Positions 3,845 through 59,601 of a DNA stretch of 61,128 nt are shown here, piece after piece (within the stretch, counting starts at the first letter, position 1; the number at the start of each line of letters is the position of its first letter). A program made the translations under genes and the position numbers. This DNA comes from a virus (lineage: Duplodnaviria > Caudoviricetes), in the IMG/VR virus record IMGVR_UViG_3300030451_002095, positions 1 through 61,128 of that record; one strand, given 5' to 3'. The notes under the pieces were generated by a model. The model was not told where the DNA came from. It made no database searches and saw nothing but the letters and a program-made list of their open reading frames with translations.

Positions 3845-6800
3845 ATGAACGAAGAAGCGATTAAAGATGGTTATAATTACTTTGTGCAAACAGGGTATAA
3901 TGGAACTATAGACGACTATAAAGCACTGTTACAGCAAAACAATGAAGCTTTTAACGATACTTATAAATACTTTGTTAACACAGGGTACAATGGAACCGTA
4001 GAAGACTTTCAAACTTTAGTAGGTGTTACGGAGGTAAATGTCACTGACACTGAAAAAAAAAATTCAAAATCTTCACAGGAAGTGGAGGAAATGTTGGTTT
4101 CAGGTATACCACAAGTTCAGGACATCGATGGTACTTTGGAGTCTTCAGAGTCAAAGATAAATCAAGATAATACCGCACAGCCCGAAGTTAATCAAAACGA
4201 ACAAGACGTAAACCAGGATAACACCGCTCAACCAGAAGTCAATGTAGACGAGCAAGAGGTTGACCAATCACAAGGAACTCAACAAAAAGTAGATCAAGAA
4301 ATATTAGATAGATTTGCGGCCATACAGCAGTTAGAGCAGGATTGGTGGATAAAAAGAGCTAAAGGAAATAAAGAACAAGCGGCATTAGATTTTTCTACAA
4401 CAAGAAAGGGGGATCTTACTGAAGCGGAGTTAAATGAGTATATGAGTTTAGGAGGTGTGAACGCTGTTCCTATTGAAGACGATAATAATCAAGCAACAGA
4501 AATAATACAACCTCAACAAATTGTACAAAGGTCTGAAAAGTTTGGGGGAGGAAAAGCATTATTAAACACAATTAAAAATATATTTAAAGGACAAGACTCT
4601 TCTGGAGATAGAGCTTATAATAGAGAGTATTTTGCAGAAACAGCGGACGGAGAAAGAGTTGATCCGGAATTAAAAAAATATATTGAAAGTGACGATCAGT
4701 TTACTCAGTCCCTGCAACATGTTTCTCCAAGGGCTATAGCGGATCCAGAGTCTTCCACAATACCTTTAATGGAATATCATTTTACACAACACGGGTATCA
4801 TTTTGAAGCCGCTGATGCGGCCGGAGATGGAATGAACGCGTATGGGTACCGAAAAGAAGGCGATAAGTGGTTTAAAGTAAAACACTATGTTAACCTGGAT
4901 AGATTGTGGTCAAAAGCATCAACCGCCAAGGCTCTTAGAGATTTTTTAGAAGAAAACAGAGAAGACACACGAGAGTATGTAGAGCTAACTAAAGGAGACT
5001 TAGAAAAACAAACCGTGTTTCATGATCAAGACCAGGTGGATAGAACGGTTAAAAAAATGACCGAAAGAGAAGACGCTCTTCGAGATGATATAAAGTCTTA
5101 TTTAAAACAGGTAAGAGATTACAACACTATCAAAGACCTTCCTGAAGATGAAGTAATTTATATAGAAGATATAAACGGAAAACAAATGGCCACTACTCCC
5201 GCAGCCCTACTGCAAGAGTTAAAATTCCAACGACAAAAATTAGTAAGAGAGCGTGAGAATTTAATTAATATTGGAAGTGAGTTAGACAGGGATATAGGTT
5301 TATGGTATATGCTTAGAGGTCAACAAGGAAGTAGGTCTGGAAGTTTTTTACAGAACATGGTATCTGGGGGAGCCTCTGATATTGGGGCGTTTGGAATGGA
5401 TTTTGTAATAGACACGGGAACTGAAATTGCTGGTTTATTTGATGAAGACTTAGATACGGACGCTGTTAAAAAACAAATTAAATTTGGTCAAGATGGTGAA
5501 AGACCAAATATGTCTCCTTTTTCTCAATACGCTAACAGAACAACTCAACGAATGGAGTCTGAAAAAGGTATAGTGGGAGGAGCTGAAGCAGCTTTTGACC
5601 AGGCTCTTGGTATGGAAAATAGAGAGCGTATTAGACAGAAAATGGAGCGTGAAAATATATTTGTAGAAGACAATCCTTTTTCAAATGAAGATTTAGAAGG
5701 AGGAAAAAAAGGCTGGTGGGAATGGGTAGGTAACCTTGGTTTTTATGGTGCTGCAAGAAGTATTCCGGCTATGGTGGGCCCTGGAAAAATTAGACTTTTA
5801 AATATGGGGGGTCAAGCTTACACTTATCTTAATAAAGAGATGGCGGGTAATGAATTTTTTGATGATATATCTGAAGGAGAAAAGAAGCTTTTCGCTATAC
5901 CTTTAGCTGTGGTAATAGGGGTTTTGGAAAATGTAGGTTTTAGAAACATGAAGCAAATGAATAGTATTAGTTCTAAAGTCTTAATGAATGTGTTAGGGAA
6001 GAGCGGTAAGGATGTGACAGGACGAAATTTTAAACAACTGGTTAAAGCTGAGGTTAACAGTATGATAGCTCAAGGATTAATTAGAGTAGGAAATGCGGGT
6101 GTTGCTGAATTTGAAACAGGATTTATGCAGGAACTTGCAGATATAACATTTAAAAGTATTTATAATACTGTTAGAGATAGCGATGCTTTTCAAACTCCTA
6201 AAAGTACGGAAGAGTTTTTTGGTCAACTATTAGTTGGAGCTACCTCGGAAATGATTGGTGGTTTTGTAATAGGAACCCCGGGAGCTATAGTGTATGCCGC
6301 AAAAGATGGGGACTTTACTCAAGTAAGCGATGATACTTTTAAAGTTTTTGAAGAGGTTCATAATCAAAAGCCCGTTAGAGATTCTTTTGTAGCTAAAATA
6401 AAGCAGAAAATATTAGACGGGAGTATGACCAAAGAAGAAGGAGATAGACAAATTGCTATCTACGATCAAGTGGTGGGGGTTATGAATCAAATTCCTACAG
6501 ACCTCCCGATGAGCTCTAAGAAAAAACTTTTAGGAAACCTATTAAGACAACAAGAGTTAAATGATTATATCGATAAGTATAATAAACAATTAACTAAAAA
6601 ACAACAAAGCGAATTAAACTTTTTAAAAGATCAGGTAGATGTTATTATTAAAGAGGGTGATAAAATAAATGAGATAGTTAAAAAAACCAAAAAAGAAACA
6701 GGTGAAGAAACTCAAGATGTGGAGGTAACTGATCAGGAAGCGAGGGAGTCTTTAGAGCAAGACAATGAATTAAATGCTCAGCTGGAAAAAAGAGGTATGC

Positions 6801-9800
6801 CTAATTCAGGACAAAAACTTATTACCCAAGAAACTATAAATGAAAGAAAAGAAAAGTTAAGACAAGAAAAATTAAATAACCAAAAAAATAAAAAAGATGC
6901 CATTCAAGAGTCAAGCACAACGCAGGTGGATGTACAAACACAAACCACAGATAGCGGCCAAATGGGAACGCAAGACGTCACGGGGGAAACTACCACAGAG
7001 GGTCAAGTCGAAAGTGAAACAGATACTGGGACGCAGAAAGAGACGGAAGTAGGGGATCCATCTATTGAGCAAGAGGTGGGCGATTTAACTGCTGCTATGG
7101 GGGGTCCAATAGATAATCAAACTGAAGGAAGTCCAGAAACAACAACTCAAACAACCACTTCGTCTGTAGAGGTAGATAGTGAAACTAATAATGTTACTAT
7201 GCAAAAAAGTGACGGTACAAGCGTTTCTTTACCTGGTGTAAGTGTAAGTGATAATGTAACCGTTACTGAAACCGCAGGGGACCCTACTGTTGTAAGGATA
7301 CAAAAAACATTATTAGACCAAGCTAAGAAAGCGGGTAAGGCTATTAAAAAATTATTACCTAATGTAAATATAGTAATACACGCTACAGAAGAGGCATATA
7401 ATCAAGCTGTAAGTCAAGATAGTAAAGGGACAAAAGGAACTTTTGCTCCAGCTACTAATACTATACATATAAACGCTCCTAAAGCGTCAAGAACAACAAT
7501 ACCTCATGAAATATTTCACGCTATTTTATTTAATAAATTAGGGATAGATAAAAATATTCAAGAGGTTACTGATAGAATGTTGAAGGCGGTTATTAAAGCG
7601 GTTAAAGATCCAAAGATTAAAAAAGACTTACAAGACTTTGCTGACGGTTACGCTATTGAAGACCAAAGTGAAGAGCAGGTTGCGGAGTTATTTGCTTTAT
7701 TAGCGGCTAATTATGCTAAATTAAATAAACCTTCTAAAAATATTATCAAACGATGGTTACAGGCTATCGCTAACAAACTCGGAATACCAGCATCTATAAC
7801 TACTGATTTTACCAAAACAGAACAAGACATTGTAGACTTCTTTAATATATTAGCCGGTAAGGTACAAACAGGAGAGGAAATACAAGAGTCTGATATTGAA
7901 GTAATAACAAAAAAACCTAAAAAGAAAACTAAAAAGTCAGAAAAGAAGCCTAAAAAAGAAATGACTAAAGAGGAGGAGGCTAAAATAGCGGACGAGCTTT
8001 ATGTAGAGAGTAAGATTAAAGAAGAGGAACAAAAAGAAAAAGAAAAACGAAAGGCTTATGAAGAAAGGGAAGCTGAATTGGAGCAGATAATGAGAGACGA
8101 AACAGGGCTTCAAGATCCAACTATTGGTTATGTAATGGAGCAGATACACTCTTATTTTTCAGGTATAACTAAACAGGATTTTGATAAATTTGGAGACCCT
8201 AATTTAAGAAAGGGAAATCCAGCCTTAAACTTTTTATTAAGAAGAAACGCTTCACCTTTAGATACTCAAAGTATAGAGTTAAGCGAGATAGCTGGTATAG
8301 AAATTACCGAGCAGGATTTTATTGACTACATGGTAGATAGAAGTAACAACCCAGGAAAATATGTTAAGTCAAAGGAAAAGAATCAAAAGGATATAAAAAA
8401 CAAAAAAGCAGGTTTAGATAAATTAATTCGTATGTATAACATGAACCCTAAAGGGTTTATTGGTACAAATATTTATTCTTTACAAGACTTAGAAAACTGG
8501 GCAGCATCTTTAGGTTTTGGTATTGGTAGAGCAAGAGTTAGAGATAAGAGCGCTTACGATTATGGAAGGTTAACAGGTTATTACTTAACTAAAAACGGAA
8601 GGTTTTTTAACCCACGATCAAAGGAAAAAAATCAAAAAAACATAGACGAGAAGAATCAAAAAGTATTTAATAAAGAGGATAATCCTATTGATATTATTAA
8701 TGATGCCCGTAATCAAAACTTTACAGACCCAGCTATTTATGATTACTTAACTCGAGTTAGAAAGTTCCCTAAAAGAGAAATTAAAGAGTTAATGAAAGTG
8801 TATGACGAAACACTTCAAACTGTACCTCCTTCTGTAGGAGCAGTTAAAGGTGGTATGTTAAATGGTTTAAAATTATATAACAGAGTATTTAAGAAATATA
8901 TTCAACTTCAAAAGGCTAACGTTAAGAATAAATCTAAAAAAAGTCAGCAAGAAATAATGGACTTAACAATGGATTATTTAAAATCTCAACCTGAGTTTAA
9001 GGCGTTAAAAGACAAAGGCTCTGATATTCTTTCTACAAAACAAAGAGTTATAGAGATAGATATGGTTAAAGCTTTAGCTGGACCAACCAGTCCTGATTTA
9101 GCTCAATCAATAAAAAAATCAATATTAATTCTTAATTCTAAAAAATTAGGAGTAAGAGAAATAAAAGAAATCCAAAGAGAACTGAGAAACTTTTTAAGAA
9201 AAGTTTTACCTAAAGATCTTTATACCAAAAAGAATGTAACTGATTTATTGAAAGAAATAAATGAAGCTACTCCAGATAATATAGAAAATATTAAAAATAA
9301 AATAGTAGAGTTTGCTGCTGAGAAAAACAATATTAGACTTGCTGAAGAGGTAGAGAAATTATTAAACCCTAAAGATAGAGTAAAAATTAATAATATATTA
9401 AAGGGTGTTGGTATAGATGACGCTACTCGTAAAAGATTAGATGGTATTAGAAGATTGCTTAATCCTAAATCAAAAGATGGAAATCTTAAAACTGATATAG
9501 GGGTAAGAGATTACTTAGCTAAATTAGAAGAAAGATATAATGAAATTAATAAAAAAGCTAAGAAGACAGATCAGGATTTTAAAGATATGACCGACCTTCA
9601 AATGGCAATGAATTTAATAAACGCTCAAGAGCTAATGAGCGATAAAGATATAGCCAAGGTAGCCACATTAAGCCAGTTAAAAGATGAGTTAACTCAAATT
9701 ATATTAACAGGAAGAACTAAATTTAAAGAAGAGTTAAGGGCTTCTCATTTAGAGTATGTAAGGCAGTTTAAAGAAGTGTGGCAAGACATTACTGGTAAAA

Positions 9801-12286
9801 AAGACTTTTTTGAAAAAGAAGCTAAAAGACAGCTTAAGGAAGAAGGATTTGATAATCCTACGCAAGAACAGTTAGATGATAAAATTGCAGATGTTATTGA
9901 GCAGGTTCGTAAAAAACTTCCAGAAGAAAAGAATTTAGCTGAGTCTAAGAAAAAACAAAACGTATTTAAAAGAGGGTTAAACCTTTATAAGGATATTTTT
10001 AAGACGCTTGGAAACTTAATGAACAAGCACTCAGATTTATTTTTATTAATGGATAAAATATCTAAATTACCAGCAAGATTGTTTGAGGGGGTTACACAAA
10101 CTGAAATAACTCAAAGGGTAGATGATGCTACTCGAGAATATAAGCAAGGGATGTTAGTTTTTGATGCTCTTCTTATTGATAAATATAAAGAGCTGTTCGG
10201 GAAAAAATACAAAAAAATAGTAGGCTCTTTTACAAATAAAATTGCTAATGTTTCTTATAGAGACAGAAGTAGAATTGATAAGGCGCAGGCAGAGTATGAT
10301 GCTAACCCTACTAAAGAAAATCAAAAAAAGCTTGAAGATGAAATAGGAAGATTAGGAATAGACTTAAGTCCTAACCAAATGTATTACTTGTATAATCAAT
10401 ATAAAGACCCTTTAAATCATCCTGGTTTTGAGGCTCAGTTTGGAGAAAACTATCAAGATGTAATGAAAGATATAGAGGCCAGGTTAGAGAAAGATTATGC
10501 TCAATTGAAAAAATTTGCAGATTGGCAAGTAGACGTTTTGTTTCCTTTAATGTATCAAAAATATAATAAAGCATACAAGGACTTGTACAGAATTGACATG
10601 CCATATAATGTGAATTATGCAGGTATGGTGTATAGAGAAGGTATTGAGCCAGAAGGGGTGGACTTACTATCTGGAAAACCTCAGTATCATAATGTGGTTT
10701 CAGCGAACTCTACTAAGTTAAGAGTAAATAGTAAGAAAGCTATTAAACCTGTGGACGGTACAGACGCTTTATATACCTATGCTCGAGACATGGAATATTT
10801 CAGTGCGTATGGTAGGGTGGTTAATGATATGCAAAAGTTATTTAGTAATGAAATAATAAAACAAACTATTGATAATATTTACGCTGGAAATGTTAACGAG
10901 ATGATTTCGGTTGCTATTGAAAAATTAGCCAACAAAGGAAACTTTAAAGACAATCTTCAGTTTGACACAGCGGTAAATATAATGCAAGACTTGTTTATAC
11001 TTTCTCGTTTAGGTATTAACCCTGTAGTTACTTTAAAACAGTTAACGTCTTTTGTTACTTATGCTAATGATATTGGTTTTGTTAATTGGATGAAGAACGC
11101 GGCAGCCTCTCGTTTGCTTAGTGGAAAATCTGTAACAGAGGTATGGAAAGAGATAGCTGCCAACTCAGTGTACCTACAGGATAGGGACGCTAAAAGCATT
11201 ACTAAGGCTTTAGAGATGTATACGGATAAAAAGTTAAACGAGGGAGATCCTATCCGTAATGTGACAGGATTACGAGCGGACCAAAGACAAACCTTGATGG
11301 ATATTTTAATGTATACTACAAGGATTGGGGATAGAGGAGCTATTTACTTAGGAGGGGTTCCTAACTATGTGTATTATAAAAATCAAGCCTTAAAAGCAGG
11401 AAAGACCGAACAAGAAGCTATAGATATAGCGATTAAAAAGTTTGAAAGAGATACTAAACGAACTCAGCAGTCTACCGATCTACAAGATAGAGATTATTAT
11501 CAAACTCGTAATTTCTATATGAGAGCTATTAATATGTTCTTAACAACTCCTAAGCAATATTTAAGAAAAGAAGTTTATGCTATGAGAAACTTCTATCGTC
11601 TTATGGCCTCAGGAGGTAAAGAAGGAAAGGGTACTAAGTTTCAAAACTTTAGAACATTTGTTACTTACCATGTTGTAATGCCTATGTTCTTCCAGTATGT
11701 AGCTAACGGTTTCCCTGGATTATTAGCTGACTGGGATGAAGAAGATAAAAGCGATTTAATGAGAGCTGCCGCTTTAGGAAACGTAAACGCTTTAGTTATA
11801 TGGGGAGAGATAGCTGTAAACACAGCTAATATAGTTCAAGGAAAACCAGAGTCTTTTATTGGGTTTAAAAACCTTCCTTTACTACAGCAATTTGAAATAT
11901 TCTTTAAGAACCTATACAGATATAGAACGTATAAAACTCCAGAGAAAAAAGAAGAGGCTGGATTTAAGGCTCTAAGAAGTTTAGGAGAATTTACAGGCCT
12001 GCCTATAAATAATATTAATAAAATATTCCAAAACCTAAAAGCTTTAGAGAAAGGAGAGGAAGACCCAGGCAAAGTGTTAATGAGATTGTTTAACTATAGT
12101 GAGTATCAAATTAAAAGTGAAGCTGAAAGATCTCAAAAAAGAAAGAAAGAAAGAAAGAAAAGCACTAAAAACGGAAACCCAATGATGCAAGAGAACCCAA
12201 TGATGCAAGAGAATCCGATGATGAAAGAAAATCCAATGATGAAAGGAAATCCTATGAAGAGAGAAAACCCTATGATGAAAAAATAA
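3845..12286 (+). CDS. Giant (2813 aa) ejection/polyvalent protein with a zincin-like HExxH motif
   Basis: TIHINAP...TIPHEIFHAIL (HEIFH at 7505-7519) followed by EEQVAELF; helical C-terminal region; position at the end of the virion module. Confidence 0.7.
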   Translation: MNEEAIKDGYNYFVQTGYNGTIDDYKALLQQNNEAFNDTYKYFVNTGYNGTVEDFQTLVGVTEVNVTDTEKKNSKSSQEVEEMLVSGIPQVQDIDGTLESSESKINQDNTAQPEVNQNEQDVNQDNTAQPEVNVDEQEVDQSQGTQQKVDQEILDRFAAIQQLEQDWWIKRAKGNKEQAALDFSTTRKGDLTEAELNEYMSLGGVNAVPIEDDNNQATEIIQPQQIVQRSEKFGGGKALLNTIKNIFKGQDSSGDRAYNREYFAETADGERVDPELKKYIESDDQFTQSLQHVSPRAIADPESSTIPLMEYHFTQHGYHFEAADAAGDGMNAYGYRKEGDKWFKVKHYVNLDRLWSKASTAKALRDFLEENREDTREYVELTKGDLEKQTVFHDQDQVDRTVKKMTEREDALRDDIKSYLKQVRDYNTIKDLPEDEVIYIEDINGKQMATTPAALLQELKFQRQKLVRERENLINIGSELDRDIGLWYMLRGQQGSRSGSFLQNMVSGGASDIGAFGMDFVIDTGTEIAGLFDEDLDTDAVKKQIKFGQDGERPNMSPFSQYANRTTQRMESEKGIVGGAEAAFDQALGMENRERIRQKMERENIFVEDNPFSNEDLEGGKKGWWEWVGNLGFYGAARSIPAMVGPGKIRLLNMGGQAYTYLNKEMAGNEFFDDISEGEKKLFAIPLAVVIGVLENVGFRNMKQMNSISSKVLMNVLGKSGKDVTGRNFKQLVKAEVNSMIAQGLIRVGNAGVAEFETGFMQELADITFKSIYNTVRDSDAFQTPKSTEEFFGQLLVGATSEMIGGFVIGTPGAIVYAAKDGDFTQVSDDTFKVFEEVHNQKPVRDSFVAKIKQKILDGSMTKEEGDRQIAIYDQVVGVMNQIPTDLPMSSKKKLLGNLLRQQELNDYIDKYNKQLTKKQQSELNFLKDQVDVIIKEGDKINEIVKKTKKETGEETQDVEVTDQEARESLEQDNELNAQLEKRGMPNSGQKLITQETINERKEKLRQEKLNNQKNKKDAIQESSTTQVDVQTQTTDSGQMGTQDVTGETTTEGQVESETDTGTQKETEVGDPSIEQEVGDLTAAMGGPIDNQTEGSPETTTQTTTSSVEVDSETNNVTMQKSDGTSVSLPGVSVSDNVTVTETAGDPTVVRIQKTLLDQAKKAGKAIKKLLPNVNIVIHATEEAYNQAVSQDSKGTKGTFAPATNTIHINAPKASRTTIPHEIFHAILFNKLGIDKNIQEVTDRMLKAVIKAVKDPKIKKDLQDFADGYAIEDQSEEQVAELFALLAANYAKLNKPSKNIIKRWLQAIANKLGIPASITTDFTKTEQDIVDFFNILAGKVQTGEEIQESDIEVITKKPKKKTKKSEKKPKKEMTKEEEAKIADELYVESKIKEEEQKEKEKRKAYEEREAELEQIMRDETGLQDPTIGYVMEQIHSYFSGITKQDFDKFGDPNLRKGNPALNFLLRRNASPLDTQSIELSEIAGIEITEQDFIDYMVDRSNNPGKYVKSKEKNQKDIKNKKAGLDKLIRMYNMNPKGFIGTNIYSLQDLENWAASLGFGIGRARVRDKSAYDYGRLTGYYLTKNGRFFNPRSKEKNQKNIDEKNQKVFNKEDNPIDIINDARNQNFTDPAIYDYLTRVRKFPKREIKELMKVYDETLQTVPPSVGAVKGGMLNGLKLYNRVFKKYIQLQKANVKNKSKKSQQEIMDLTMDYLKSQPEFKALKDKGSDILSTKQRVIEIDMVKALAGPTSPDLAQSIKKSILILNSKKLGVREIKEIQRELRNFLRKVLPKDLYTKKNVTDLLKEINEATPDNIENIKNKIVEFAAEKNNIRLAEEVEKLLNPKDRVKINNILKGVGIDDATRKRLDGIRRLLNPKSKDGNLKTDIGVRDYLAKLEERYNEINKKAKKTDQDFKDMTDLQMAMNLINAQELMSDKDIAKVATLSQLKDELTQIILTGRTKFKEELRASHLEYVRQFKEVWQDITGKKDFFEKEAKRQLKEEGFDNPTQEQLDDKIADVIEQVRKKLPEEKNLAESKKKQNVFKRGLNLYKDIFKTLGNLMNKHSDLFLLMDKISKLPARLFEGVTQTEITQRVDDATREYKQGMLVFDALLIDKYKELFGKKYKKIVGSFTNKIANVSYRDRSRIDKAQAEYDANPTKENQKKLEDEIGRLGIDLSPNQMYYLYNQYKDPLNHPGFEAQFGENYQDVMKDIEARLEKDYAQLKKFADWQVDVLFPLMYQKYNKAYKDLYRIDMPYNVNYAGMVYREGIEPEGVDLLSGKPQYHNVVSANSTKLRVNSKKAIKPVDGTDALYTYARDMEYFSAYGRVVNDMQKLFSNEIIKQTIDNIYAGNVNEMISVAIEKLANKGNFKDNLQFDTAVNIMQDLFILSRLGINPVVTLKQLTSFVTYANDIGFVNWMKNAAASRLLSGKSVTEVWKEIAANSVYLQDRDAKSITKALEMYTDKKLNEGDPIRNVTGLRADQRQTLMDILMYTTRIGDRGAIYLGGVPNYVYYKNQALKAGKTEQEAIDIAIKKFERDTKRTQQSTDLQDRDYYQTRNFYMRAINMFLTTPKQYLRKEVYAMRNFYRLMASGGKEGKGTKFQNFRTFVTYHVVMPMFFQYVANGFPGLLADWDEEDKSDLMRAAALGNVNALVIWGEIAVNTANIVQGKPESFIGFKNLPLLQQFEIFFKNLYRYRTYKTPEKKEEAGFKALRSLGEFTGLPINNINKIFQNLKALEKGEEDPGKVLMRLFNYSEYQIKSEAERSQKRKKERKKSTKNGNPMMQENPMMQENPMMKENPMMKGNPMKRENPMMKK
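12173..12283 (+). repeat. Six in-frame 18-bp repeats encoding (G/E)NPM(M/K)x at the C-terminus of the giant protein
   Basis: GNPMMQ ENPMMQ ENPMMK ENPMMK GNPMKR ENPMMK. Confidence 0.9.
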
Positions 12287-27264: not shown

Positions 27265-27624
27265 TTAGAAAGGTTTTATTTCGTTATAGAATTCTTTTAT
27301 TTGTTCCTTACTCATTTCAATATCATAACTATCTGTTAATTCTCTGTTCCATACTGATAACCAAATTGTGTTGGTCTGTTCGTTTACCCATGTGTCCAAG
27401 TTGTATTGTTCGTTAATATAGTCGGATGTTCGTTCTAATTGTGTAGGGTTTAACTCTTTGTTTTCTTTTTCCAGTATTTTCAGAACCTCGATACAGTGTT
27501 CGATTTTCTCCTCATCATCCCACAACATTAAAGATTTTTGATACTGGATGTTTGATAGTGTTGTTTCCAGTCGTTGTCTAACTGATTTGATATCACAATC
27601 AATCAATAAATTTTCTTTTTCCAT
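27265..27624 (-). CDS. Hypothetical early protein
   Basis: 119-aa ORF in the operon. Confidence 0.6.
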   Translation of the reverse strand: MEKENLLIDCDIKSVRQRLETTLSNIQYQKSLMLWDDEEKIEHCIEVLKILEKENKELNPTQLERTSDYINEQYNLDTWVNEQTNTIWLSVWNRELTDSYDIEMSKEQIKEFYNEIKPF

Positions 27625-27628
27625 AATT

Positions 27629-27790
27629 TTATTTATTTAAGTTTTGGTATAAAAATTTTATATAGTTTTTTTCAAATGTCTCTAAATTTTGGTATTGTTC
27701 CTTAAAGTACATGTGTTTGATATTTACTGGTATTTGGTTTTTATTTAACCATATTAACCAATCTTCAAAATGATAAATTTTTGTTTCCAT
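27629..27790 (-). CDS. Unannotated 53-aa early protein downstream of hammerhead HH-B
   Basis: Manual translation METKIYHFEDWLIWLNKNQIPVNIKHMYFKEQYQNLETFEKNYIKFLYQNLNK. Confidence 0.6.
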   Translation of the reverse strand: METKIYHFEDWLIWLNKNQIPVNIKHMYFKEQYQNLETFEKNYIKFLYQNLNK

Positions 27791-27816
27791 AAATTTTTTA
27801 ATTTATATTAGTATTT

Positions 27817-27911
27817 GTTATTGACTGGGGGAAGTTTACCTGTGTACCTCTTTCGTGTACCTTATTCGTTATCCCCCAGTTTCGGACAATATCAGTCCTC
27901 ATCAGAATAAC
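27817..27911 (-). ncRNA. Type I hammerhead ribozyme (HH-B)
   Basis: Minus strand reads GUUAUU-CUGAUGA-GGAC(UGAUAUU)GUCC-GAAA-CUGGGGGA(39-nt loop)UCCCCCAG-UC-AAUAAC; all core nucleotides, three stems and a GUC triplet; predicted cut between 27823 and 27822. Confidence 0.93.
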
Positions 27912-28084
27912 TATTTAATAACCTCGACAAACTCCATACTCTTAAACTCCTCTTTTAACTTTTCGTTTATCTCTTTTACTAACTCAATTTCACATCTTTC
28001 ATAAAATTTGATTAGTCCCTTATTTTTAGGGTTGTTTTCCTGTCTCAATTCTTTTAGAATTTTTTTACATTGTAATAAAGTCAT
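27911..28084 (-). CDS. Unannotated 57-aa protein between the two hammerheads
   Basis: Manual translation MTLLQCKKILKELRQENNPKNKGLIKFYERCEIELVKEINEKLKEEFKSMEFVEVIK; leader TTAAAAAGTTATG shared with 28520 and 28775; its TAG stop overlaps stem I of HH-B. Confidence 0.7.
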   Translation of the reverse strand: MTLLQCKKILKELRQENNPKNKGLIKFYERCEIELVKEINEKLKEEFKSMEFVEVIK

Positions 28085-28109
28085 AACTTTTTAATTTTTA
28101 TTAGTGTTT

Positions 28110-28212
28110 GTTATTGACTACAAAGAGAAGTATTGAGATGAAATGTTCTTAAGGGTATTATTGAGAACCTCTCTTTGTAGTTTCGGACATTTTTAGTCCT
28201 CATCAGAATAAC
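28110..28212 (-). ncRNA. Type I hammerhead ribozyme (HH-A)
   Basis: Minus strand reads GUUAUU-CUGAUGA-GGAC(UAAAAAU)GUCC-GAAA-CUACAAAGAGA(loop)UCUCUUUGUAG-UC-AAUAAC; predicted cut between 28116 and 28115. Confidence 0.93.
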
Positions 28213-28214
28213 TT

Positions 28215-28520
28215 TTATTCTCTATCAAATGGAATGTCTAACTCATTACATAGATCCAAACCGAACCAGTAGACAAGATGATTTACTAATTTTTCGTTAT
28301 CTTCAAAAGTCGTTTGTATTTCTCCAAACTCTTTATATTCTCTTATATTACAAATCATAACTCCCTCTCTTTCTCCTATGTTGTGAAGTTTTAACCACTG
28401 GGTGGCGTTGTGGTAACCGATTATATAATAATCTTCATTGAACATTGTAAAATGATTTTGGTCATCTGTATTAAAATTGTTGATGTGTTCGAGTAGTTCT
28501 TTTCTAACTGATTTTTTCAT
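28215..28520 (-). CDS. Hypothetical early protein
   Basis: FNEDYYIIGY...EKLVNHLVYWFG; stop lies 2 nt before HH-A. Confidence 0.65.
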   Translation of the reverse strand: MKKSVRKELLEHINNFNTDDQNHFTMFNEDYYIIGYHNATQWLKLHNIGEREGVMICNIREYKEFGEIQTTFEDNEKLVNHLVYWFGLDLCNELDIPFDRE

Positions 28521-28806
28521 AACTTTTTAATTTTAGTATTATTATTCGTTTTATCTGTTCTCGTATTCTTCAAAATCTAATCCGATACACTCACAAAGAA
28601 ACTCCTCTTCGAACCAAAATAAATCGTTTATTTCTGTTTCTGTTGGTGTTCTGTCGTGGTATAAATCCTCTAAATGAAACTCAATCTCTTTTAATTCGTT
28701 GTAGGTGAATTCGTGTTGTTTTCCTCCACTCCAAAAATTGAAGTTTGTCAAATCTAAATTTTTTGTGTAGTTCATAACTTTTTAATTTTAGTATTATTAT
28801 TCGTTT
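28516..28806 (-). repeat. Identical 36-bp leader/start repeat at 28516-28551 and 28771-28806
   Basis: ttcataactttttaattttagtattattattcgttt occurs twice, spanning the leaders and starts of the first two early genes. Confidence 0.9.
28551..28775 (-). CDS. First early gene, conserved-looking acidic hypothetical protein
   Basis: FNFWSGG...TETEINDLFWFE. Confidence 0.65.
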   Translation of the reverse strand: MNYTKNLDLTNFNFWSGGKQHEFTYNELKEIEFHLEDLYHDRTPTETEINDLFWFEEEFLCECIGLDFEEYENR

Positions 28807-28816
28807 AATTATTGTA

Positions 28817-28849
28817 CAAATATAGTATAAAACTATTTAATAAAACAAA
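28817..28849 (-). promoter_or_regulatory. Main early promoter (TTTG, 21-nt spacer, TATATTTG)
   Basis: Matches the Bacteroidota -33/-7 consensus; faces the early operon. Confidence 0.75.
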
Positions 28850-28890
28850 CTTTTTTTAACTTTTTTTTGTCCCAGTATGAAAATAATTTT

Positions 28891-28915
28891 TAAGTTATTG
28901 ATTTACAACAACTTA
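28891..28915. promoter_or_regulatory. Imperfect palindrome containing an IHF-consensus site
   Basis: TAAGTTATTGATTTACAACAACTTA; reverse strand AATCAATAACTTA matches WATCAANNNNTTR. Confidence 0.5.
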
Positions 28916-28929
28916 CAGAGAAAAAAAAA

Positions 28930-29210
28930 TTGTGTTTTTTTGGTGTTTTGTTTGTGTTTTGGGGGTTTCGTTGGGGTGTTATCCTCTTTCTTTCTTTGTC
29001 TAAATACTTTTATTTAGTCAATAATTGGAACGAGGGAAGGACAAACAGAGGACAAAAGGAACGGACAGAGGACAGAACAAGGACACAAGGACAGACAGAC
29101 AGAGAGACAAACAACCAACCAACCAGACAACCAGAACCCCCACCAAAAAACCCAAAAAAATCGGACTGGAAATTTTGAAAACAACACCCCACCCCCCAAA
29201 AAACAAAACG
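28930..29210. other. Non-coding strand-switch region with extreme base asymmetry; candidate genome end or packaging locus
   Basis: No A in 28930-28980; no T in 29027-29160; six GGACA repeats; central hairpin at 29000-29017. Confidence 0.55.
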
Positions 29211-29281
29211 ATTTCCGAACACGACATGTCGGTGTATGACTATATATAACCCTTAACCCCTAAACATCTAAAAAAATTTTA

Positions 29282-29905: not shown

Positions 29906-31492
29906 ATGAAAGAACAAGGATACATTCCAAAAGACCTCTCTTTTGATAATGAGGCAAGAGAAAAATTAATATCGGGAATCTCTAAAATATCTAACGCAGT
30001 TAAATCAACTCTCGGCCCTCAAGGGCAAACTGTATTGATAGAATCAACAGAACACACTCAAGGATTAACTGTAACTAAAGACGGAGTAACTGTAGCTAAA
30101 TCAATATTCCTTATTGACCCAATAGAGAACCTTGCGGTTAGGATGATGAAACAAGCTTCAGAGAAAACAGCTAACACAGCTGGAGACGGTACAACTACTG
30201 CGATTGTTTTAACTGAGGCTTTGGTTAAGGCTGGGGAGAAATATATAGAGGCAGGGATGAGTACTATTAATGTAGTTAGGAAAATAAGGGAGATTGGTGA
30301 GGAGATAATTAAGAAAATAAAAAAAGAATCTATAGAGGTTACCGAGCAAATGCTTGCGGACATAGCAACCATATCTGCTAACAACGATAAGGAGATTGGT
30401 GATATTATAGCAAAGTCTTATAAAGAAGTAGGTCGTGATGGTATAGTAACGGTTGAGAGATCTCAAACTGACGAAACTTATGCGGAGGTTACTAATGGTA
30501 TAAAGGTGGATAGAGGATGGACATCTCCACTTTTTATTAATGATCAAAGAAAAGATGAGTGTATATATGATAATGTAAAGATTCTTATATGTGATGCTGA
30601 GATTAATAATATATTACAAATTGAGAATGTTCTTAAACCAATTATTAATGCAGGAGAGAAGTTATTAATTATTGGAGACTGTTCTCAAAATGTTATTAAT
30701 ACTATGGCTGCCAATGTTCAGCGTAACGGATTAAAGTTTTGTAATATAAAACCACCTTCATTTGGATACAAGACTCATGAGTTGATGCAGGATATTGCAT
30801 TTGCTGTAGGAGCTAAATACTTTTCAGAAAAGACTGGAGATGATTTATCTCTAATTAGACCAGAAGATTTAGGTCATGCAGATAAAATAATAGCAGGTAA
30901 AGATTCAACTATTATTATTAAGGACGGTGATATTGGTGAAGAGACTATAAAAAGAGTAGAAGAACTTAGAGAACAACAACAAAGATTAACAGCTAAACAT
31001 GAGAAAGACTTTATTAATGAAAGAATAGCAAGTTTAGTTGGAGGGATAGGATGTATATATGTAGGGGCCACTTCTGATATAGAGCAAAAAGAAAAATTTG
31101 ACCGAGTCGATGACTCGGTATGCGCGGTGCGCAGTGCCTTACAAGAAGGCATTGTTCCTGGGGGAGGATTACTTCTACATACTATAGCTCAAAAATATAA
31201 AGGTGATGATATAGCTAATAAAATAATGAAAGAAACTTTAGAAGCTCCATTAACTCAAATATTAAAAAACGCTGGATTATGTAAAGATGACATATATCAT
31301 AAGGCTGATAATTTACAAAAGAATGTAGGGTATAATGTTGTTACCAGAGAGTACGGAAATATGTTTGACATGGGGGTAGTTGATCCGGCCAGAGTTACTA
31401 TACAAGCATTAAGTAATGCTATTAGTGTAGCTACAACTATACTTACTACTAACGCTATAGTTACTCACGCAAGAATACATACTGATTCGTGA
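29906..31492 (+). CDS. groEL: Phage-encoded chaperonin GroEL
   Basis: AVKSTLGP, TKDGVTVAK, AGDGTTTA, ATISAN, GIVPGGG, GVVDPARV; lacks the GGM tail. Confidence 0.95.
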   Translation: MKEQGYIPKDLSFDNEAREKLISGISKISNAVKSTLGPQGQTVLIESTEHTQGLTVTKDGVTVAKSIFLIDPIENLAVRMMKQASEKTANTAGDGTTTAIVLTEALVKAGEKYIEAGMSTINVVRKIREIGEEIIKKIKKESIEVTEQMLADIATISANNDKEIGDIIAKSYKEVGRDGIVTVERSQTDETYAEVTNGIKVDRGWTSPLFINDQRKDECIYDNVKILICDAEINNILQIENVLKPIINAGEKLLIIGDCSQNVINTMAANVQRNGLKFCNIKPPSFGYKTHELMQDIAFAVGAKYFSEKTGDDLSLIRPEDLGHADKIIAGKDSTIIIKDGDIGEETIKRVEELREQQQRLTAKHEKDFINERIASLVGGIGCIYVGATSDIEQKEKFDRVDDSVCAVRSALQEGIVPGGGLLLHTIAQKYKGDDIANKIMKETLEAPLTQILKNAGLCKDDIYHKADNLQKNVGYNVVTREYGNMFDMGVVDPARVTIQALSNAISVATTILTTNAIVTHARIHTDS

Positions 31493-54414: not shown

Positions 54415-57400
54415 ATGGGGTCAAAACTAACATCAACTAATTTTGTAGCGGGTAAAATGAATAAGTCTATTGACGAAAGACTTGTTCCTCCTGGAGAATA
54501 TATAGACGCGTTAAATGTTCGTTTAGGGTCTACTGAAAACACAGAAATTGGAGCTGTAGAGAATTCGCGAGGTAATAGTATTTTAACAACTTTAGAATAT
54601 AACAACCAACCTTTAACTGGAGACGTTAGGTGTATCGGGGCTTATGAAGACGGAATAAATGAAACTATTTATTGGTTTGTTCATAACGAAAACAATCCTA
54701 ATTCTGTTGTAACGGGTGTTGTAGATTTAGTAGTTTCATACAATACTAACACAGGTTCTTTGGTTTATCATTGTATTAGCACTGAAGTTTTACAGTTTGA
54801 TTTTAAATATCTTATAACGGGTGTTAATAAAATAGACAATCTTTTATTTTGGACAGATGATTTAAACCCTCCTCGAGTTATAAATGTAACGTCTGATTAT
54901 GATTATCCTGTAGCTGGACTTGACAATGTATTTGAAGAAGAGGATGTAAGTGTTATTGTAAAGCCTCCTGGTTATGAGGATTTTGACACAACAGTAAATC
55001 AATATATGCCTTTAGGGTCTCCAGAAGTAGAGCTTTATCGTTTAGTTGGACAGGAAAATTATATGGAAACCAGGTTTTTATGTTTTGCGTATAGATATAG
55101 GTATGCAGACGGTCAATATAGCGCGATATCTTTATTTAGCACTCCTGCTTATCAGCCTAATCAGTTTAGATTTAGTATTCAAAATTACTTAAACTCTGGA
55201 ATGAGAAATCGTTTTAACGCTTGTAGAGTTACTTTTTCTACAGGATCAAAACGAGTAAAAGAAATTGACCTCTTATACAAACAGAGTACTTCTAATACTA
55301 TATATGTAATAAAAAGATTTAACAAACAAGATTTAGGAATACCTGATAATGACTACGAAACAGTTTCTTTTTCTAACAGTGAAATATATACTACTTTAGG
55401 TTCGGATGAGCTATTAAGATTATATGACAATGTGCCGCGAACAGCTAAAGCTCAAACCATACAAGGTAATCGTTTAATGTACGGAAATTATGTAGACGGT
55501 TATGATGTGACAATTACTCCGGGAGGAGCAGAAATAGATATAGATTACTTTACGTCTCCTAATTCAAAAGAGATTGCAGGAGAGGCTATTGGAGATGGAG
55601 GAACTACAAATCCTTTAACTAATAACTCTCCTTATACTTTCGGTCCTGGAACAGCTGGTCAAGACTCTGTTCTTATATGGGATTTAACCAATGCTAATCC
55701 TGTAGCTGGAGACATTGTGGCGGGAACCACTTTTAATTTTTCATTTTCTATAGAGCAAAATCAATTAATTTGTAATCCCGGAGGAACTCCTGATTGTGTG
55801 GCAGCCAGTACTTATGTACAGTCTTCCCCTTTTAACGTTTCAATGACATTTACATGTCCGGTAGATTATCCAGATGTAACCGCTATGTGTGCGAGTCCTG
55901 AATTTGCAGAAAGAATTGGTGGTAATGCTGCTCAAGGGTATACTGGAACAGGAGTGATACAAGAACTTTATCCGTGTAACAATTCAGATAATGGGGGAAC
56001 ATTAAGTGATAGATTTTATTCTAACGCAGTTAGCCCAATGACAGGGACAACTATGAGTTTAATAAGTGGAGGAATGGACGCGGCTCATCAGTGTACCACT
56101 CCTATTGCTGGGTGGCCTCTTACTTGTAGTACCACTGTGGTTTCTTCAGGGGTTACTGATGGAGCTGTTGCGGGTTTTTTAACCGACTCTACAGCTGACT
56201 TTATTACAGACGGTGTATCTAATGGGGACCAGGTTATGGATATGTCCACTGGTTTAACAGCTACCGTAGACACTTCGGTTAACCCTATTACAGCAACTTC
56301 TTTGCCCATCGTAGATAATACAGGTGGTTTAGCTACATTAGAAACTTCGGGGGTTACATTTCAAGTGGTAGCAGGTTCAGGAGCTGCTGCTCCGTGTGAT
56401 CCTTATGGTTTTGAATTTACGCCTGTAGCAGGAGGGTTTCAATTAAAACTTCCAGCTACTCAATATTGGGCTGATGACGGGGCTGGAGTTACTTCAGAAG
56501 CTTTTATTTATTATAACTTTATTGCTTATGGTTGTAGTGCAGGGTATTTAACTTCTCAAGACCAGGGTAGTTTGCACTCTAATAGAGATTACGAGACAGG
56601 TATTGTTTATATGGATGAATACGGAAGAGCTTCTACCGTATTAGTAAGTAACACTAATACCACTTACTTTGATCCGGCAACCTCTGTATTTAAAAATAGA
56701 ATAACAGTTAATCTTTCAAGTTTACCTCCATGGTGGGCTAAAAAATATAAGTTTGTAGTTAAACCAAGTGAGGGGACATATAATACTATATTTTCCAATA
56801 TTTTTTACAAACAAGATGGGACAGCTACAGCTTCTACAGGTGCTGCTACAGAAAACGACCCAAGTTTAGTATGGTTTAAATTAGAAGGAAATAATCAAAA
56901 CTTAGTAAAAGTAGGAGACGAATTAATAGTTAAAGTAGATACCGCGGGGGCAGTATTAACTGAAGAAAAATGTACTATATTAGCTATCGAGGCGTTTCCT
57001 TCTAAAGGAATAACAAGTAAATCCTTAAAAGGTTTGTACATGTGTTTAAAACCATCAGGATGGACTATTGAATCAACACAACAGAATTATTTTAGAGGTA
57101 CTAAAAAGAAAGACGCAAATGATACCGGGAATTGTGCTGATGGATGTATAAATAATTATGATCTTAATGATGACGGAAGTCCTGGAGTGCCTTATACTAT
57201 ACCAGCGGGTTCTACTATTAGAATACGAATAGATAATTGGCGTGGTGGTGGTGATGGAAACTGCGACTCTAAACGTCTTAAATATGATAAAACATTTATT
57301 TCTACCGCAGACTACCCTAACTTTCATGCTTGGTCAGTAGGAGATGATTTGCAAAGTCAAATGACTTGTAATCAAGCTCAAGAGTGTTATGAAATGAATA

Positions 57401-59601
57401 TTTCTTATGACCCAGCCTTATCTTCTTCAGGAGGTTGTACTTACAGTTGTTTTAATACTAAGTGTAGGTGTAGGGTAGCAAGTAATGGTGAAATGTTTTT
57501 TGTAAACACATGTGGTATACCAAGGTGTTGGGAATGGTTTGAAAGATATGACGGTCATTGCTCTACATTAATTGAGGTAACAAGAGGAGGTTCTTTATTA
57601 GTATGGGAAAGCGTTCCTCAAGATGCAGATCCTAATTTATTTTATGACGCTTCTGATTTATTAGATATAGAGCCTTTAGTACCAGGAGGTCAAGGATACC
57701 ACATGGCTAAAAGAAATTTTGTTAAATCCTTATTACCAGGAGATCCTTACTCGCTACCATCAGGAGAAATTGATCAAAGCCCCGTAACGGATTTAGTTAC
57801 TACTTTAGATTTTTATAACTGTTTTACATTTGGAAATGGGGTAGAAAGTTATAGAATTCAAGACAGTCCAGCAGGAAAAAGTTTTAATTTAGGAGAGAGG
57901 GTTTTAGCTGTTTCTAATCAAGACTTTAAAGAAGCGGATAGATTTGCAGGAATGACGTATAGTGGTGTTTTTAGCGGGCCGGCTAACTCTAACAATCTTA
58001 ATGAGTTTAATTTAGGATTAGCTAACTACAAAGATTGTGAAACTCGTTTTGGTCCTATCATGAAAATGCACTCGAGAGAAACGGATATTTTAGTTCTTCA
58101 AGAAGATAGGATAACTTATGTATTATCTGGTAAAAATGTTATTACAGATTCTACAGGAGGAGGAGCAATAGCTTCAGTGCCAGAAGTATTGGGAACACAA
58201 ATAGCAAGAATAGAAGAATATGGTATAAGTTTTAATCCAGAAAGTTTTGCCGCTTGGGGTTATGATATGTTTTTTACAGACACTAAAAGAGGAGCTGTAA
58301 TAAATTTAAGAGGAGCTTCTCAAGGGAGTGATCAATTACAAACTATTCAGGCTTACGGAATGAACTCTTGGTTTAGAGATAATTTTAATGCTAATTTAAC
58401 TACTCAAAAATTAGGAGGCTACGATCCATATATGAAAGAATTTGTGTTAGGTACTAACTTAAGACAAGTTCCGGTTCCGGTTCCTTTAGTTCCTTGCGGT
58501 CAGCAAATTCAACAAATGTCCTCGTCTTCGCCTGTAGTTTTTGAAGTGGATTTAGGATTGGTAATAGGCCAGGTAGATATTCCTTATAATATTTCAAGCG
58601 GAACTATTAATATTGATGTGGTCTGGAATGGAGTAACTTATAGTTCAGGAAACGTAAGTGCTAACGGTTCGTTTAATTTTAATAAAACCCTTAACACTCC
58701 TGATACAGCAGAAGTTACTATTACTCCAATAACACCTACCGCAAGCTATGATATAACAGTTGAATGTCCTCCTGAAGTTCCATTAACCGTTATTCAAGTG
58801 GTAGTTAACTCTCCAAACTATTCTGGTCAATTTATTACTACTAATTACAATTGGACAGACGGAACAACTATTAGTCCTTATACAGGTTTTTCTCCTGCTG
58901 AACTAATAACATTACAACCTTCAGAGTATCAGGCTCAAACAGGAGTTAGATCTATAGGAGTTTTTCCTTATTCGGGAGCGGATATAAAATTGAGAACCCA
59001 AAAAATACCACCTGATGATTTTGATTTTAACCCATTACATCATAGGTTTAGAATACTTTCTTCTCCTATTTTATATACTAATTCTCCAGCTGATATAGCA
59101 AGTCTATTAGCCAACGCTCCTGTAGTTTCAGGACCAATTACTGGTGGGCCAACTCAATATCAAGCAATAGAAGCTGGATTCTCTATGCCTTTAGCAAACC
59201 CATACCTATATTTAATTTGGGACTTAAGGTTAATTACAAATATGCAATTATGTTATTGTTCACCACCTCCAGCAGCAACCGTAGATGATGTGTGTTGTTC
59301 TTGTTCGGTAGGTTGTGGGCAAATTTATTTAGGACCTCAAACATTTAGTGAAGCGGCAGTGTGCGCTACTAATGTTCAAAGTGCTGGAGCTGTAGGTTTG
59401 GTTGGGTTCAATAGTAATGGAGCTAATCCAGAATTAGGAGCAATAGTATACGACAACACTTCATGCTTAGCAGGTAGTTCAGGAAACTATCAAGCGGCAG
59501 GATTTTATATAATGGATGTTAACAATCCAGGTACCAATAATCCAAAACAGTGGATACAAATTGGAGCTAACGGAGTGGTAATAAACACAGGAACATGTTA
59601 A
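54415..59601 (+). CDS. Tail nozzle/stabilisation protein (1728 aa)
   Basis: GKMNKSIDERLVPPGEYIDALNVR N-terminus, FAYRYRY, NRLMYGNY, FGNGVES, YGISFNPESF. Confidence 0.8.
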   Translation: MGSKLTSTNFVAGKMNKSIDERLVPPGEYIDALNVRLGSTENTEIGAVENSRGNSILTTLEYNNQPLTGDVRCIGAYEDGINETIYWFVHNENNPNSVVTGVVDLVVSYNTNTGSLVYHCISTEVLQFDFKYLITGVNKIDNLLFWTDDLNPPRVINVTSDYDYPVAGLDNVFEEEDVSVIVKPPGYEDFDTTVNQYMPLGSPEVELYRLVGQENYMETRFLCFAYRYRYADGQYSAISLFSTPAYQPNQFRFSIQNYLNSGMRNRFNACRVTFSTGSKRVKEIDLLYKQSTSNTIYVIKRFNKQDLGIPDNDYETVSFSNSEIYTTLGSDELLRLYDNVPRTAKAQTIQGNRLMYGNYVDGYDVTITPGGAEIDIDYFTSPNSKEIAGEAIGDGGTTNPLTNNSPYTFGPGTAGQDSVLIWDLTNANPVAGDIVAGTTFNFSFSIEQNQLICNPGGTPDCVAASTYVQSSPFNVSMTFTCPVDYPDVTAMCASPEFAERIGGNAAQGYTGTGVIQELYPCNNSDNGGTLSDRFYSNAVSPMTGTTMSLISGGMDAAHQCTTPIAGWPLTCSTTVVSSGVTDGAVAGFLTDSTADFITDGVSNGDQVMDMSTGLTATVDTSVNPITATSLPIVDNTGGLATLETSGVTFQVVAGSGAAAPCDPYGFEFTPVAGGFQLKLPATQYWADDGAGVTSEAFIYYNFIAYGCSAGYLTSQDQGSLHSNRDYETGIVYMDEYGRASTVLVSNTNTTYFDPATSVFKNRITVNLSSLPPWWAKKYKFVVKPSEGTYNTIFSNIFYKQDGTATASTGAATENDPSLVWFKLEGNNQNLVKVGDELIVKVDTAGAVLTEEKCTILAIEAFPSKGITSKSLKGLYMCLKPSGWTIESTQQNYFRGTKKKDANDTGNCADGCINNYDLNDDGSPGVPYTIPAGSTIRIRIDNWRGGGDGNCDSKRLKYDKTFISTADYPNFHAWSVGDDLQSQMTCNQAQECYEMNISYDPALSSSGGCTYSCFNTKCRCRVASNGEMFFVNTCGIPRCWEWFERYDGHCSTLIEVTRGGSLLVWESVPQDADPNLFYDASDLLDIEPLVPGGQGYHMAKRNFVKSLLPGDPYSLPSGEIDQSPVTDLVTTLDFYNCFTFGNGVESYRIQDSPAGKSFNLGERVLAVSNQDFKEADRFAGMTYSGVFSGPANSNNLNEFNLGLANYKDCETRFGPIMKMHSRETDILVLQEDRITYVLSGKNVITDSTGGGAIASVPEVLGTQIARIEEYGISFNPESFAAWGYDMFFTDTKRGAVINLRGASQGSDQLQTIQAYGMNSWFRDNFNANLTTQKLGGYDPYMKEFVLGTNLRQVPVPVPLVPCGQQIQQMSSSSPVVFEVDLGLVIGQVDIPYNISSGTINIDVVWNGVTYSSGNVSANGSFNFNKTLNTPDTAEVTITPITPTASYDITVECPPEVPLTVIQVVVNSPNYSGQFITTNYNWTDGTTISPYTGFSPAELITLQPSEYQAQTGVRSIGVFPYSGADIKLRTQKIPPDDFDFNPLHHRFRILSSPILYTNSPADIASLLANAPVVSGPITGGPTQYQAIEAGFSMPLANPYLYLIWDLRLITNMQLCYCSPPPAATVDDVCCSCSVGCGQIYLGPQTFSEAAVCATNVQSAGAVGLVGFNSNGANPELGAIVYDNTSCLAGSSGNYQAAGFYIMDVNNPGTNNPKQWIQIGANGVVINTGTC

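Follow-up and report, generated by a model that had tools for sequence, protein, structure and literature searches.

Tandem type I hammerhead motifs predicted to divide a polycistronic phage transcript

Introduction

The viral record IMGVR_UViG_3300030451_002095 (61,128 bp; hereafter ‘the window’, meaning this whole stretch of DNA) carries two short elements, hammerhead 1 (HH1) and hammerhead 2 (HH2), that lie in consecutive gaps between small genes on the minus strand and resemble hammerhead self-cleaving ribozymes. This arrangement raises the question of whether both RNAs are true members of this ribozyme class and, if so, what a phage would gain by cutting its own transcript between neighboring genes. 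A first-pass annotation of the sequence had proposed that the pair punctuates an early polycistronic transcript.

Clusters of hammerheads in phages and prophages were published in 2011, and were described as lying close together on one strand, where they flank individual genes or short gene groups (Perreault et al., 2011, PMC3088659). The role proposed at that time was the cutting of long phage transcripts into gene-length mRNAs, and three clustered phage hammerheads were reported to cleave in vitro and one in vivo (PMC3088659). The same report describes a halovirus hammerhead that precedes a start codon by 13 nt within a polycistronic early transcript (PMC3088659). A later review states that the purpose of genome-encoded hammerheads in bacteria and phages needs additional work (2019, PMC6765202).

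For the locus described here, we favor, with a probability of roughly 80%, a reading in which two active type I hammerheads constitutively self-cleave the polycistronic leftward transcript of a phage of marine Flavobacteriia. This reading is suggested by the predicted structures of HH1 and HH2, by a large set of covarying relatives, and by the positions that these RNAs occupy between genes.

Two elements with the core and stems of type I hammerheads

The hammerhead core is composed of the nucleotides C3 U4 G5 A6 N7 G8 A9 and G12 A13 A14, wherein position 7 is the one free position. Both elements carry an intact core when the minus strand is read, each presents a GUC cleavage triplet, and each has the type I topology, in which stem I is open and loops close stems II and III (Table 1). 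The two copies are identical in stems I and II. For the minus strand, the first-pass annotation is correct in its coordinates, stem sequences, predicted 5′ ends (28115 and 27822) and distances. This core consensus is matched by nearly all natural hammerheads (PMC3088659).

The minimum-energy fold of each isolated element is a three-way junction. None of 200 dinucleotide shuffles folds as well as HH1 (z = -3.8), and only one of 200 is as good as HH2 (z = -3.0). The loose core pattern CTGATGA-N6-30-GAAA, taken by itself, occurs at chance level (two matches versus 0.97 expected, with 26 of 100 shuffles yielding at least two), and therefore the case for these RNAs rests on the whole structure and on the relatives that share it.

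Covariation among phage relatives

An exact scan of IMG/VR with the pattern CTGATGAGGAC-N4-12-GTCCGAAA recovered 29 loci. Twenty-three of these fold in the architecture found in the window, one was clipped at the end of its locus and was later completed, and five occur in unrelated, G+C-rich sequence. The 23 loci share an open stem I of 6-7 pairs and a stem III of 5-11 pairs (loop mostly 3-6 nt), followed by UC or UA and then by an A-rich leader. Once four duplicates were removed, 19 relatives and the two window copies made up an alignment of 21 distinct sequences (A1), in which 336 of 336 cells pair (100%), versus 71.9% in shuffled sequences and 20-40% when the pairing partners are slid. Two-sided changes are present in 11 of 16 pairs, and the covariation score of 0.696 compares with 0.150 in shuffles.

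A covariance model (R1) built from A1 identifies 41 copies at E < 1e-6 from 23 sources, all of them viral contigs. In the whole window it finds exactly two copies, with HH1 scoring 63.5 bits and HH2 scoring 64.4 bits. The additional R1 copies include other stem II sequences (GGAU/AUCC, GUCC/GGAC, GUGU/ACAC, GAGU/ACUC, GGCU/AGCC and GUCU/AGAC), and in a second alignment (A2) stem II is thus seen to covary as well, with two-sided changes in 14 of 16 pairs and a covariation score of 0.848 versus 0.186 in shuffled sequences. In both A1 and A2, 16 of 16 modelled pairs form in 100% of the cells, and sliding the partners gives covariation scores of at most 0.116.

Variation in the core of the 41 copies is limited to position 7, which is U in 37, C in two, and A and G in one each. 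All complete rows of A2 have C or A at H17, never G, although the pattern scan was set by design to non-G at this site. Among the 39 distinct copies, stem I has six pairs in nearly all and a possible seventh in a few, the base directly 5′ of this stem is A in every copy (39/39), the base directly 3′ is A in 36, and loop II is mostly U-NNN-U. Such a short stem I, ending in conserved unpaired As opposite a small loop II, is compatible with a tertiary contact as judged from the sequences, and inspection by eye revealed no pairing of loop II with the flanks.

A leave-out model (R2) was also built from 24 relatives, excluding both window copies and L026, the locus that carries their closest orthologue. 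With filters off, R2 recovers HH1 at 44.2 bits (E 6.7e-9) and HH2 at 39.3 bits (E 1.3e-7), and the next best match in the 61 kb scores 13.8 bits. The original assignment of both elements to the hammerhead class is upheld by these comparisons, as evident from an intact core that varies only at its free position and from three stems that covary over 39 distinct relatives. Contigs from four DNA sequencing runs, when aligned to 27600-28900, show no differences in those parts of the ribozymes that they cover.

In the stem III loop of HH1 (within 28117-28180, minus strand), the sequence CUCAAUA occurs twice, and both occurrences resemble the genuine cleavage site with the adjoining stem I strand (GUCAAUAAC). 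Both the Rfam model and the leave-out model aligned first to the inner CUCAAUA copy, and these repeats may be the trace of a local duplication.

A search of 185,579 representative prokaryote genomes, made with the GGAC/GUCC version of stem II only, gave 27 pattern matches, none of which exceeds 28.3 bits with R1. Within the scope of that search, the family appears to have no clear member outside phages. R1 was also blank in Cellulophaga phages phi38:1 and phi13:2, Maribacter phage Panino, Tenacibaculum phage Gundel_1 and the uncultured record MW202828.1, a first look that carries little weight.

Placement between genes

Both elements are intergenic between real genes, as first proposed, and both lie in the sense of a conserved promoter of the Bacteroidota type where the leftward block of genes begins (Table 1). 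The consensus for such promoters is TTTG-N21-TAnnTTTG. Both promoter elements are invariant in the relatives L011, L023 and L026, of which L023 differs in the spacer. By itself, the promoter pattern shows no enrichment in the window (seven matches versus 4.5 expected), a scan for sigma-70 promoters gives a result at shuffle level (21 sites versus 18.7), and no terminator-like sites were found between 30000 and 26500. The ribozymes follow the second and third genes of a probable early operon, where ‘early’ is taken from gene order and position only.

Table 1. Coordinates of the two hammerhead motifs and adjoining features in the window.
Feature	Position	Strand	Description
Promoter match, Bacteroidota type	28817..28849	minus	TTTG, 21 nt, TATATTTG; head of leftward gene block
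Gene 1	28551..28775	minus	74 aa, phrog_5149
Gene 2	28215..28520	minus	101 aa, phrog_10208; preceded by 30-nt leader without ribozyme
HH1 (type I)	28212-28110	minus	three stems and core read from sequence
HH1 stem I (6 bp)	28212-28207 with 28115-28110	minus	GUUAUU with AAUAAC
HH1 core	28206-28200 and 28184-28181	minus	CUGAUGA and GAAA
HH1 stem II hairpin (4 bp)	28199-28185	minus	GGAC-UAAAAAU-GUCC
HH1 stem III	28180-28117	minus	14 pairs including G-U, 35-nt loop
HH1 C17	28116	minus	predicted cut 28116/28115, new 5′ end 28115
Leader after HH1 cut	28085..28115	minus	31 nt, A-rich, G-poor, before gene 3
Gene 3	27911..28084	minus	57 aa, no family; between HH1 and HH2; protein conserved in L026
HH2 (type I)	27911-27817	minus	three stems and core read from sequence
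HH2 stem I (6 bp)	27911-27906 with 27822-27817	minus	GUUAUU with AAUAAC
HH2 core	27905-27899 and 27883-27880	minus	CUGAUGA and GAAA
HH2 stem II hairpin (4 bp)	27898-27884	minus	GGAC-UGAUAUU-GUCC
HH2 stem III	27879-27824	minus	8 pairs, 39-nt loop
HH2 C17	27823	minus	predicted cut 27823/27822, new 5′ end 27822
Leader after HH2 cut	27791..27822	minus	32 nt, A-rich, before gene 4
Gene 4	27629..27790	minus	53 aa, no family; downstream of HH2

The fit between ribozymes and genes is tight. HH1 begins 2 nt past the stop codon of gene 2 (28217-28215), and the first G of HH2 is the last base of the stop codon of gene 3 (27913-27911), an overlap of 1 nt. Across the family, 29 of 37 copies have the upstream stop positioned between -10 and +3 nt relative to stem I, and the predicted cut falls 18-39 nt (median 24) before the next ATG in 38 of 39 distinct copies when open reading frames (ORFs) of at least 30 codons are considered. 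The single outlier results from an ATG inside stem I, and its real start is 25 nt from the cut. The genes that follow encode diverse small proteins, 30 of 32 of which have no Pfam family, and so no common cargo is evident. A varied identity of the genes beside phage hammerhead clusters was also noted previously (PMC3088659).

A leader motif recurs before the first four genes. A near-identical 30-nt leader (AACGAATAATAATACTAAAATTAAAAAGTT) stands ahead of genes 1 and 2 (28776-28805 and 28521-28550, minus strand), and related leaders follow both ribozymes. The 9-mer AACGAATAA, which is present in the HH2 insert and in two leaders, has four occurrences versus 1.04 expected. In run X7, one metagenome contig connects 28770 with 28516 across the leader repeat, and this joint within a repeated leader is probably an assembly effect.

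Gain, loss and expansion of the module

The first-pass annotation had suggested a check of synteny in related phages, and the module indeed recurs at the corresponding place in relatives. The promoter region and gene 2 of the window are common to L011, L023/L027 and L026. At the HH1 junction, L023 has a ribozyme whose stem III consists of six pairs capped by a GAAA loop, and L026 retains HH2 in orthologous form, long insert included (L026:3905-4008). The single copy in L011 has the stem I of the window and a tetraloop. Complete relatives, which are phage genomes of ~60 kb, have one, one, two, four and nine copies, always on a single strand and within a few kb, with spacings of ~0.3-1.7 kb. The nine copies belong to the complete relative G001 (L032, L033), wherein they occupy one strand over ~5 kb across the ends of the linear record.

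Most relatives have a stem III loop of 3-6 nt, and inserts of 26-56 nt are found in the two window copies, in L026 and in five copies of G001. The G001 inserts bear no relation to one another, and a 47-nt loop insert is all that separates one G001 copy from its twin. From the comparison of L023, L026 and L011, it follows that the module is gained or lost at individual junctions and that its long inserts are recent additions in a tolerant loop, as G001 also shows.

A proposed route from one transcript to several messages

As RNA polymerase passes each element, the three-way junction would fold and the RNA would be cut 3′ of C17 (28116/28115 for HH1 and 27823/27822 for HH2). The ribozyme body would remain on the 3′ end of the upstream message, where it would serve as a structured cap that carries a 2′,3′-cyclic phosphate. 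The weak, A/U-rich stem I of six base pairs should then melt to free the downstream message; in the window copies, the stem I duplex taken alone is predicted to contribute only -1.8 kcal/mol, which would favor product release over religation. Each downstream message is expected to begin with a 5′-OH, followed by a brief A-rich leader (31-32 nt) that lacks structure. Such 5′-OH ends may, as the first-pass annotation proposed, slow decay.

By this route, separate mRNAs would be produced for genes 1 and 2, for gene 3 (a 293-nt RNA), and for gene 4 onward. The stability and translation of each mRNA would be uncoupled from upstream sequence, and the leader context would always be the same. A ribozyme with these effects could act as a natural insulator at the boundaries of shuffled gene cassettes. 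Leaders of the same type occur without a ribozyme between genes 1 and 2 of the window and between genes 2 and 3 of L026, and thus the ribozyme is not required for translation as such. We infer cleavage, its timing and its effects on decay and translation from the features described above.

Points that weigh against self-cleavage in cells

Several results count against the proposal of constitutive cleavage, beginning with the outcome of Rfam searches. The first-pass annotation had suggested a check against Rfam hammerhead models, and no such model reaches its gathering score in the window; indeed, the whole window gives no match to Rfam 15 at gathering thresholds. A permissive search of 27700-28350 returns, as hammerhead families, only RF03152 (RAGATH-1-hammerhead; 18 bits, E 2.6) and RF02275 (HH9; 13.1 bits), and both matches fall on HH1 with stem III set incorrectly. 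The loci of 10 relatives (79,580 bases) likewise contain no hammerhead at gathering, and the best permissive scores among them, 33.5 and 27.3 bits for RF03152, compare with a gathering value of 56.3. Because these loci, mostly with tetraloop copies, are also missed, the long stem III loops of the window cannot be the sole cause.

The family described here resembles RAGATH-1, the top Rfam family for the relatives and for HH1, in its type I topology, its short open stem I, the GAG-ACU at the start of stem II and the CGAAAC that follows. However, the RF03152 model has a 5′ hairpin and a one-pair stem II, whereas the window family lacks the 5′ hairpin and has a stem II of four pairs. In the RF03152 alignments, the 5′ hairpin is mispaired or carries inserts of 16-26 nt. 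The family displays the features by which the hammerhead class is defined, yet current Rfam models miss it.

The only match at gathering thresholds in the loci of the 10 relatives is a Pistol ribozyme (RF02679) at L028:1231-1294 (plus strand; 67.2 bits versus a gathering value of 34.5). It lies ~800 nt upstream of the L028 hammerhead (L028:2093-2156) on the same strand, which places two classes of self-cleaving ribozymes within one phage operon.

The alignments, the predicted folds and the distribution of the ribozymes also call for caution. The rows of A1 were required to have at least three pairs in stems I and III, with stem II set by the search pattern, and A2 was fitted to R1, and so both alignments lean toward the structure. 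When 200-nt contexts are folded, the minimum-energy structure retains stems II and III but loses stem I, and at HH1 an upstream AGAAUAA is able to pair with UUAUUCU in place of stem I and so compete for the 5′ strand. Folding in cells would therefore depend on junction and tertiary energies that are outside the model of the program, and the 35-39-nt stem III loops might slow this process. Furthermore, genes 2 and 3 of L026 are parted by a plain 33-nt leader with no ribozyme, and the junction of genes 1 and 2 in the window has the same leader and again no ribozyme, from which it follows that the ribozyme is dispensable at a given junction.

Alternative explanations

This dispensability, together with the short and weak stem I, a tertiary contact that is only hypothetical, and Rfam scores below threshold, is what would be expected if the motifs were inactive or barely active relics, or were structures such as pause sites or protein-binding sites that do not cut in the cell. 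We consider this very unlikely, since all 41 copies preserve every catalytic core position and vary only at position 7, H17 is C or A (non-G by design in the pattern scan), and the unpaired As that flank stem I are held in all (5′) or nearly all (3′) copies, and a mere hairpin would not keep such features. If the RNAs do cut, the main benefit could lie at the 3′ end of the upstream message, which would be ended without a terminator and shielded from 3′ exonucleases by a compact structure and a cyclic phosphate, with the 5′-OH leader as a by-product. In accord with this idea, the type I topology leaves the whole ribozyme on the upstream fragment, most copies adjoin or overlap the upstream stop (29/37, as above), and the region 30000-26500 offers no terminator-like sites. 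The distance to the downstream ATG is nonetheless kept as tightly (18-39 nt) as the distance to the stop, and we judge a predominantly 3′ benefit to be unlikely; the 5′ and 3′ benefits are compatible with each other, and sequence cannot separate them. Alternatively, the hammerhead might be a translation device, in which the cut frees an unstructured, A-rich 5′-OH end that is needed or strongly preferred by the ribosome at an internal cistron. Bacteroidia ribosomes are reported to ignore Shine-Dalgarno sequences, with leader structure tuning initiation (PMC6847099). This reading seems quite unlikely, because leaders of the same type are present at the ribozyme-free junctions in the window and in L026. 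If true, it would provide a bacterial-virus counterpart of the ribozyme-dependent translation described for eukaryotic RNA viruses (PMC13725137), and the variable stem III inserts could tune the release of each message.

These inserts could also be sensor or binding modules that make cleavage conditional, such that HH1 and HH2 would be switches rather than constitutive cutters. Regulated cleavage has been raised for phage hammerheads (PMC3088659), the loops of 35 and 39 nt in the window, like those of L026 and five G001 copies, far exceed the usual 3-6 nt, and a 4-bp hairpin in the shared HH2/L026 insert is preserved through a double change (GUAC/GUAC versus GUAA/UUAC; two sequences only, compared by eye). 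There is little reason to expect such a switch, given that the inserts of different copies have no sequence in common, that no Rfam aptamer family is matched in the window, that the L023 positional orthologue of HH1 has a plain tetraloop, and that the 47-nt difference between the G001 twins looks like a tolerated insertion at a neutral site. Most improbable in our estimation is the excision of the 293-nt segment 28115-27823, containing gene 3 and HH2, followed by circularization through the reverse hammerhead reaction or a host RtcB-type ligase, as for retrozymes and viroid-like RNAs. The identical stems I and II would let the excised RNA rebuild a full hammerhead from its own ends, its length is within the viroid-like size range, and this possibility was named for phage clusters (PMC3088659). 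However, the ribozyme pair is not conserved, with L026 keeping gene 3 and HH2 without HH1 and with relatives having one to nine copies, and on these same grounds a retrozyme or viroid-like unit bounded by a conserved ribozyme pair was rejected. Moreover, neighboring stem I strands cannot pair across copies in several relatives (e.g. L029 and L023, read by eye), stem I is very weak, no RNA ligase was found among the 39 window proteins scanned, and the earlier report states that no circular or spliced products were detected (PMC3088659).

The phage and its cultured relative

Direct terminal repeats are present in the window, which is a complete phage record, and DNA of this phage is present in marine metagenomes. 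The minus-strand block that includes the ribozymes (~12.5-28.8 kb) encodes a primase/helicase, a helicase, an exonuclease, a Sak-like annealing protein and many small ORFs. Plus-strand blocks encode a GroEL-like chaperonin, a terminase, a portal protein and virion proteins, among them one (54415-59601) with the crAss ‘muzzle’ domain PF25731 (E 1.2e-8). The terminase shares 45.8% identity with those of Elemovirus (Flavobacterium phages), 37-43% with its counterparts in Cellulophaga and Maribacter phages, and 32.5% with that of a Tenacibaculum phage.

Other features of the genome were observed as well. The chaperonin gene (29906-31492, plus strand; phrog_5725, E 5e-134) has a TAnnTTTG promoter-like element upstream at ~29866, and in the Elemovirus relative a cpn10 is annotated beside the terminase. 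A 2813-aa ORF (3845-12286, plus strand) has no Pfam, PHROG or PDB sequence match. The divergent intergenic region of 1.1 kb is G/T-rich at ~28930-29000 and continues as a nearly T-free A/C/G tract at ~29020-29200 with GGACA/GACAGA repeats, and this region (28930-29240) may serve as an origin or in regulation.

A single copy of the hammerhead is present in Flavobacterium phage vB_FspP_elemoA_7-9A (MT497017.1, 17286-17351, minus strand; 43.4 bits), and its cut, with a predicted 5′ end at 17295, would precede the ATG of the following gene (17267) by 28 nt. On the other strand, the GenBank record has a hypothetical coding sequence (CDS), elemo79Aphanotate_43, that lies over this hammerhead (MT497017.1 17275-17382, plus strand; L064:976-1083) and is probably a false gene call. 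On a practical level, Rfam models miss the family, and a hypothetical CDS covers the ribozyme in the elemoA record. The cultured pair of this phage and Flavobacterium sp. BAL314, with its one copy, could serve as a direct system for functional tests.

Comparison with known systems

The two ribozymes belong to a uniform subfamily of phage hammerheads outside Rfam 15; phage hammerhead clusters and the processing idea have been known since 2011. No description of this family was found in the literature searched, although the supplement of PMC3088659 may already hold members. Likewise, the literature search found no link of hammerheads with Cellulophaga, and no paper on hammerheads of crAss-like phages was among the matches listed. 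The family constitutes a clean case in its uniform architecture, its fixed position from stop to start, its range of zero to nine copies in close relatives, and its presence or absence at the same gene junction in different relatives.

The published clusters and the family described here share an organization in same-strand groups between varied genes, and the same processing role has been proposed for both (PMC3088659). The examples tested in that report come mainly from prophages of Clostridium, Azorhizobium and Agrobacterium (PMC3088659), whereas the present family resides in virulent-type phages of ~60 kb that are associated with marine Flavobacteriia. It is also set apart from the clusters of PMC3088659 by a uniform open stem I of 6 bp, a 4-bp stem II, an A on both far flanks, and a cut 18-39 nt before the ATG. 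Type I hammerheads in the untranslated regions (UTRs) of RNA viruses likewise fill a short intergenic UTR and cut a few nucleotides before the next ORF, and in those viruses expression of the ORF downstream is linked to cleavage (PMC13725137). Their carriers are eukaryotic RNA viruses with cap-independent translation (PMC13725137). The carrier of HH1 and HH2, in contrast, is a DNA phage.

The early RNA of phage T7 is cut by host RNase III at intergenic hairpins to yield stable monocistronic mRNAs with a 5′ phosphate and a 3′ OH. The likeness lies in a polycistronic early transcript that is cut between genes, and the proposal for the window differs in that the RNA would cut itself and leave a 5′ OH and a 2′,3′-cyclic phosphate. 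A similar outcome is exploited by synthetic insulators of the RiboJ type, in which a self-cleaving ribozyme placed before the leader frees downstream expression from the influence of upstream sequence. RiboJ is an engineered device, whereas the ribozymes of this phage may be natural insulators that serve the same purpose at the junctions of its small genes.

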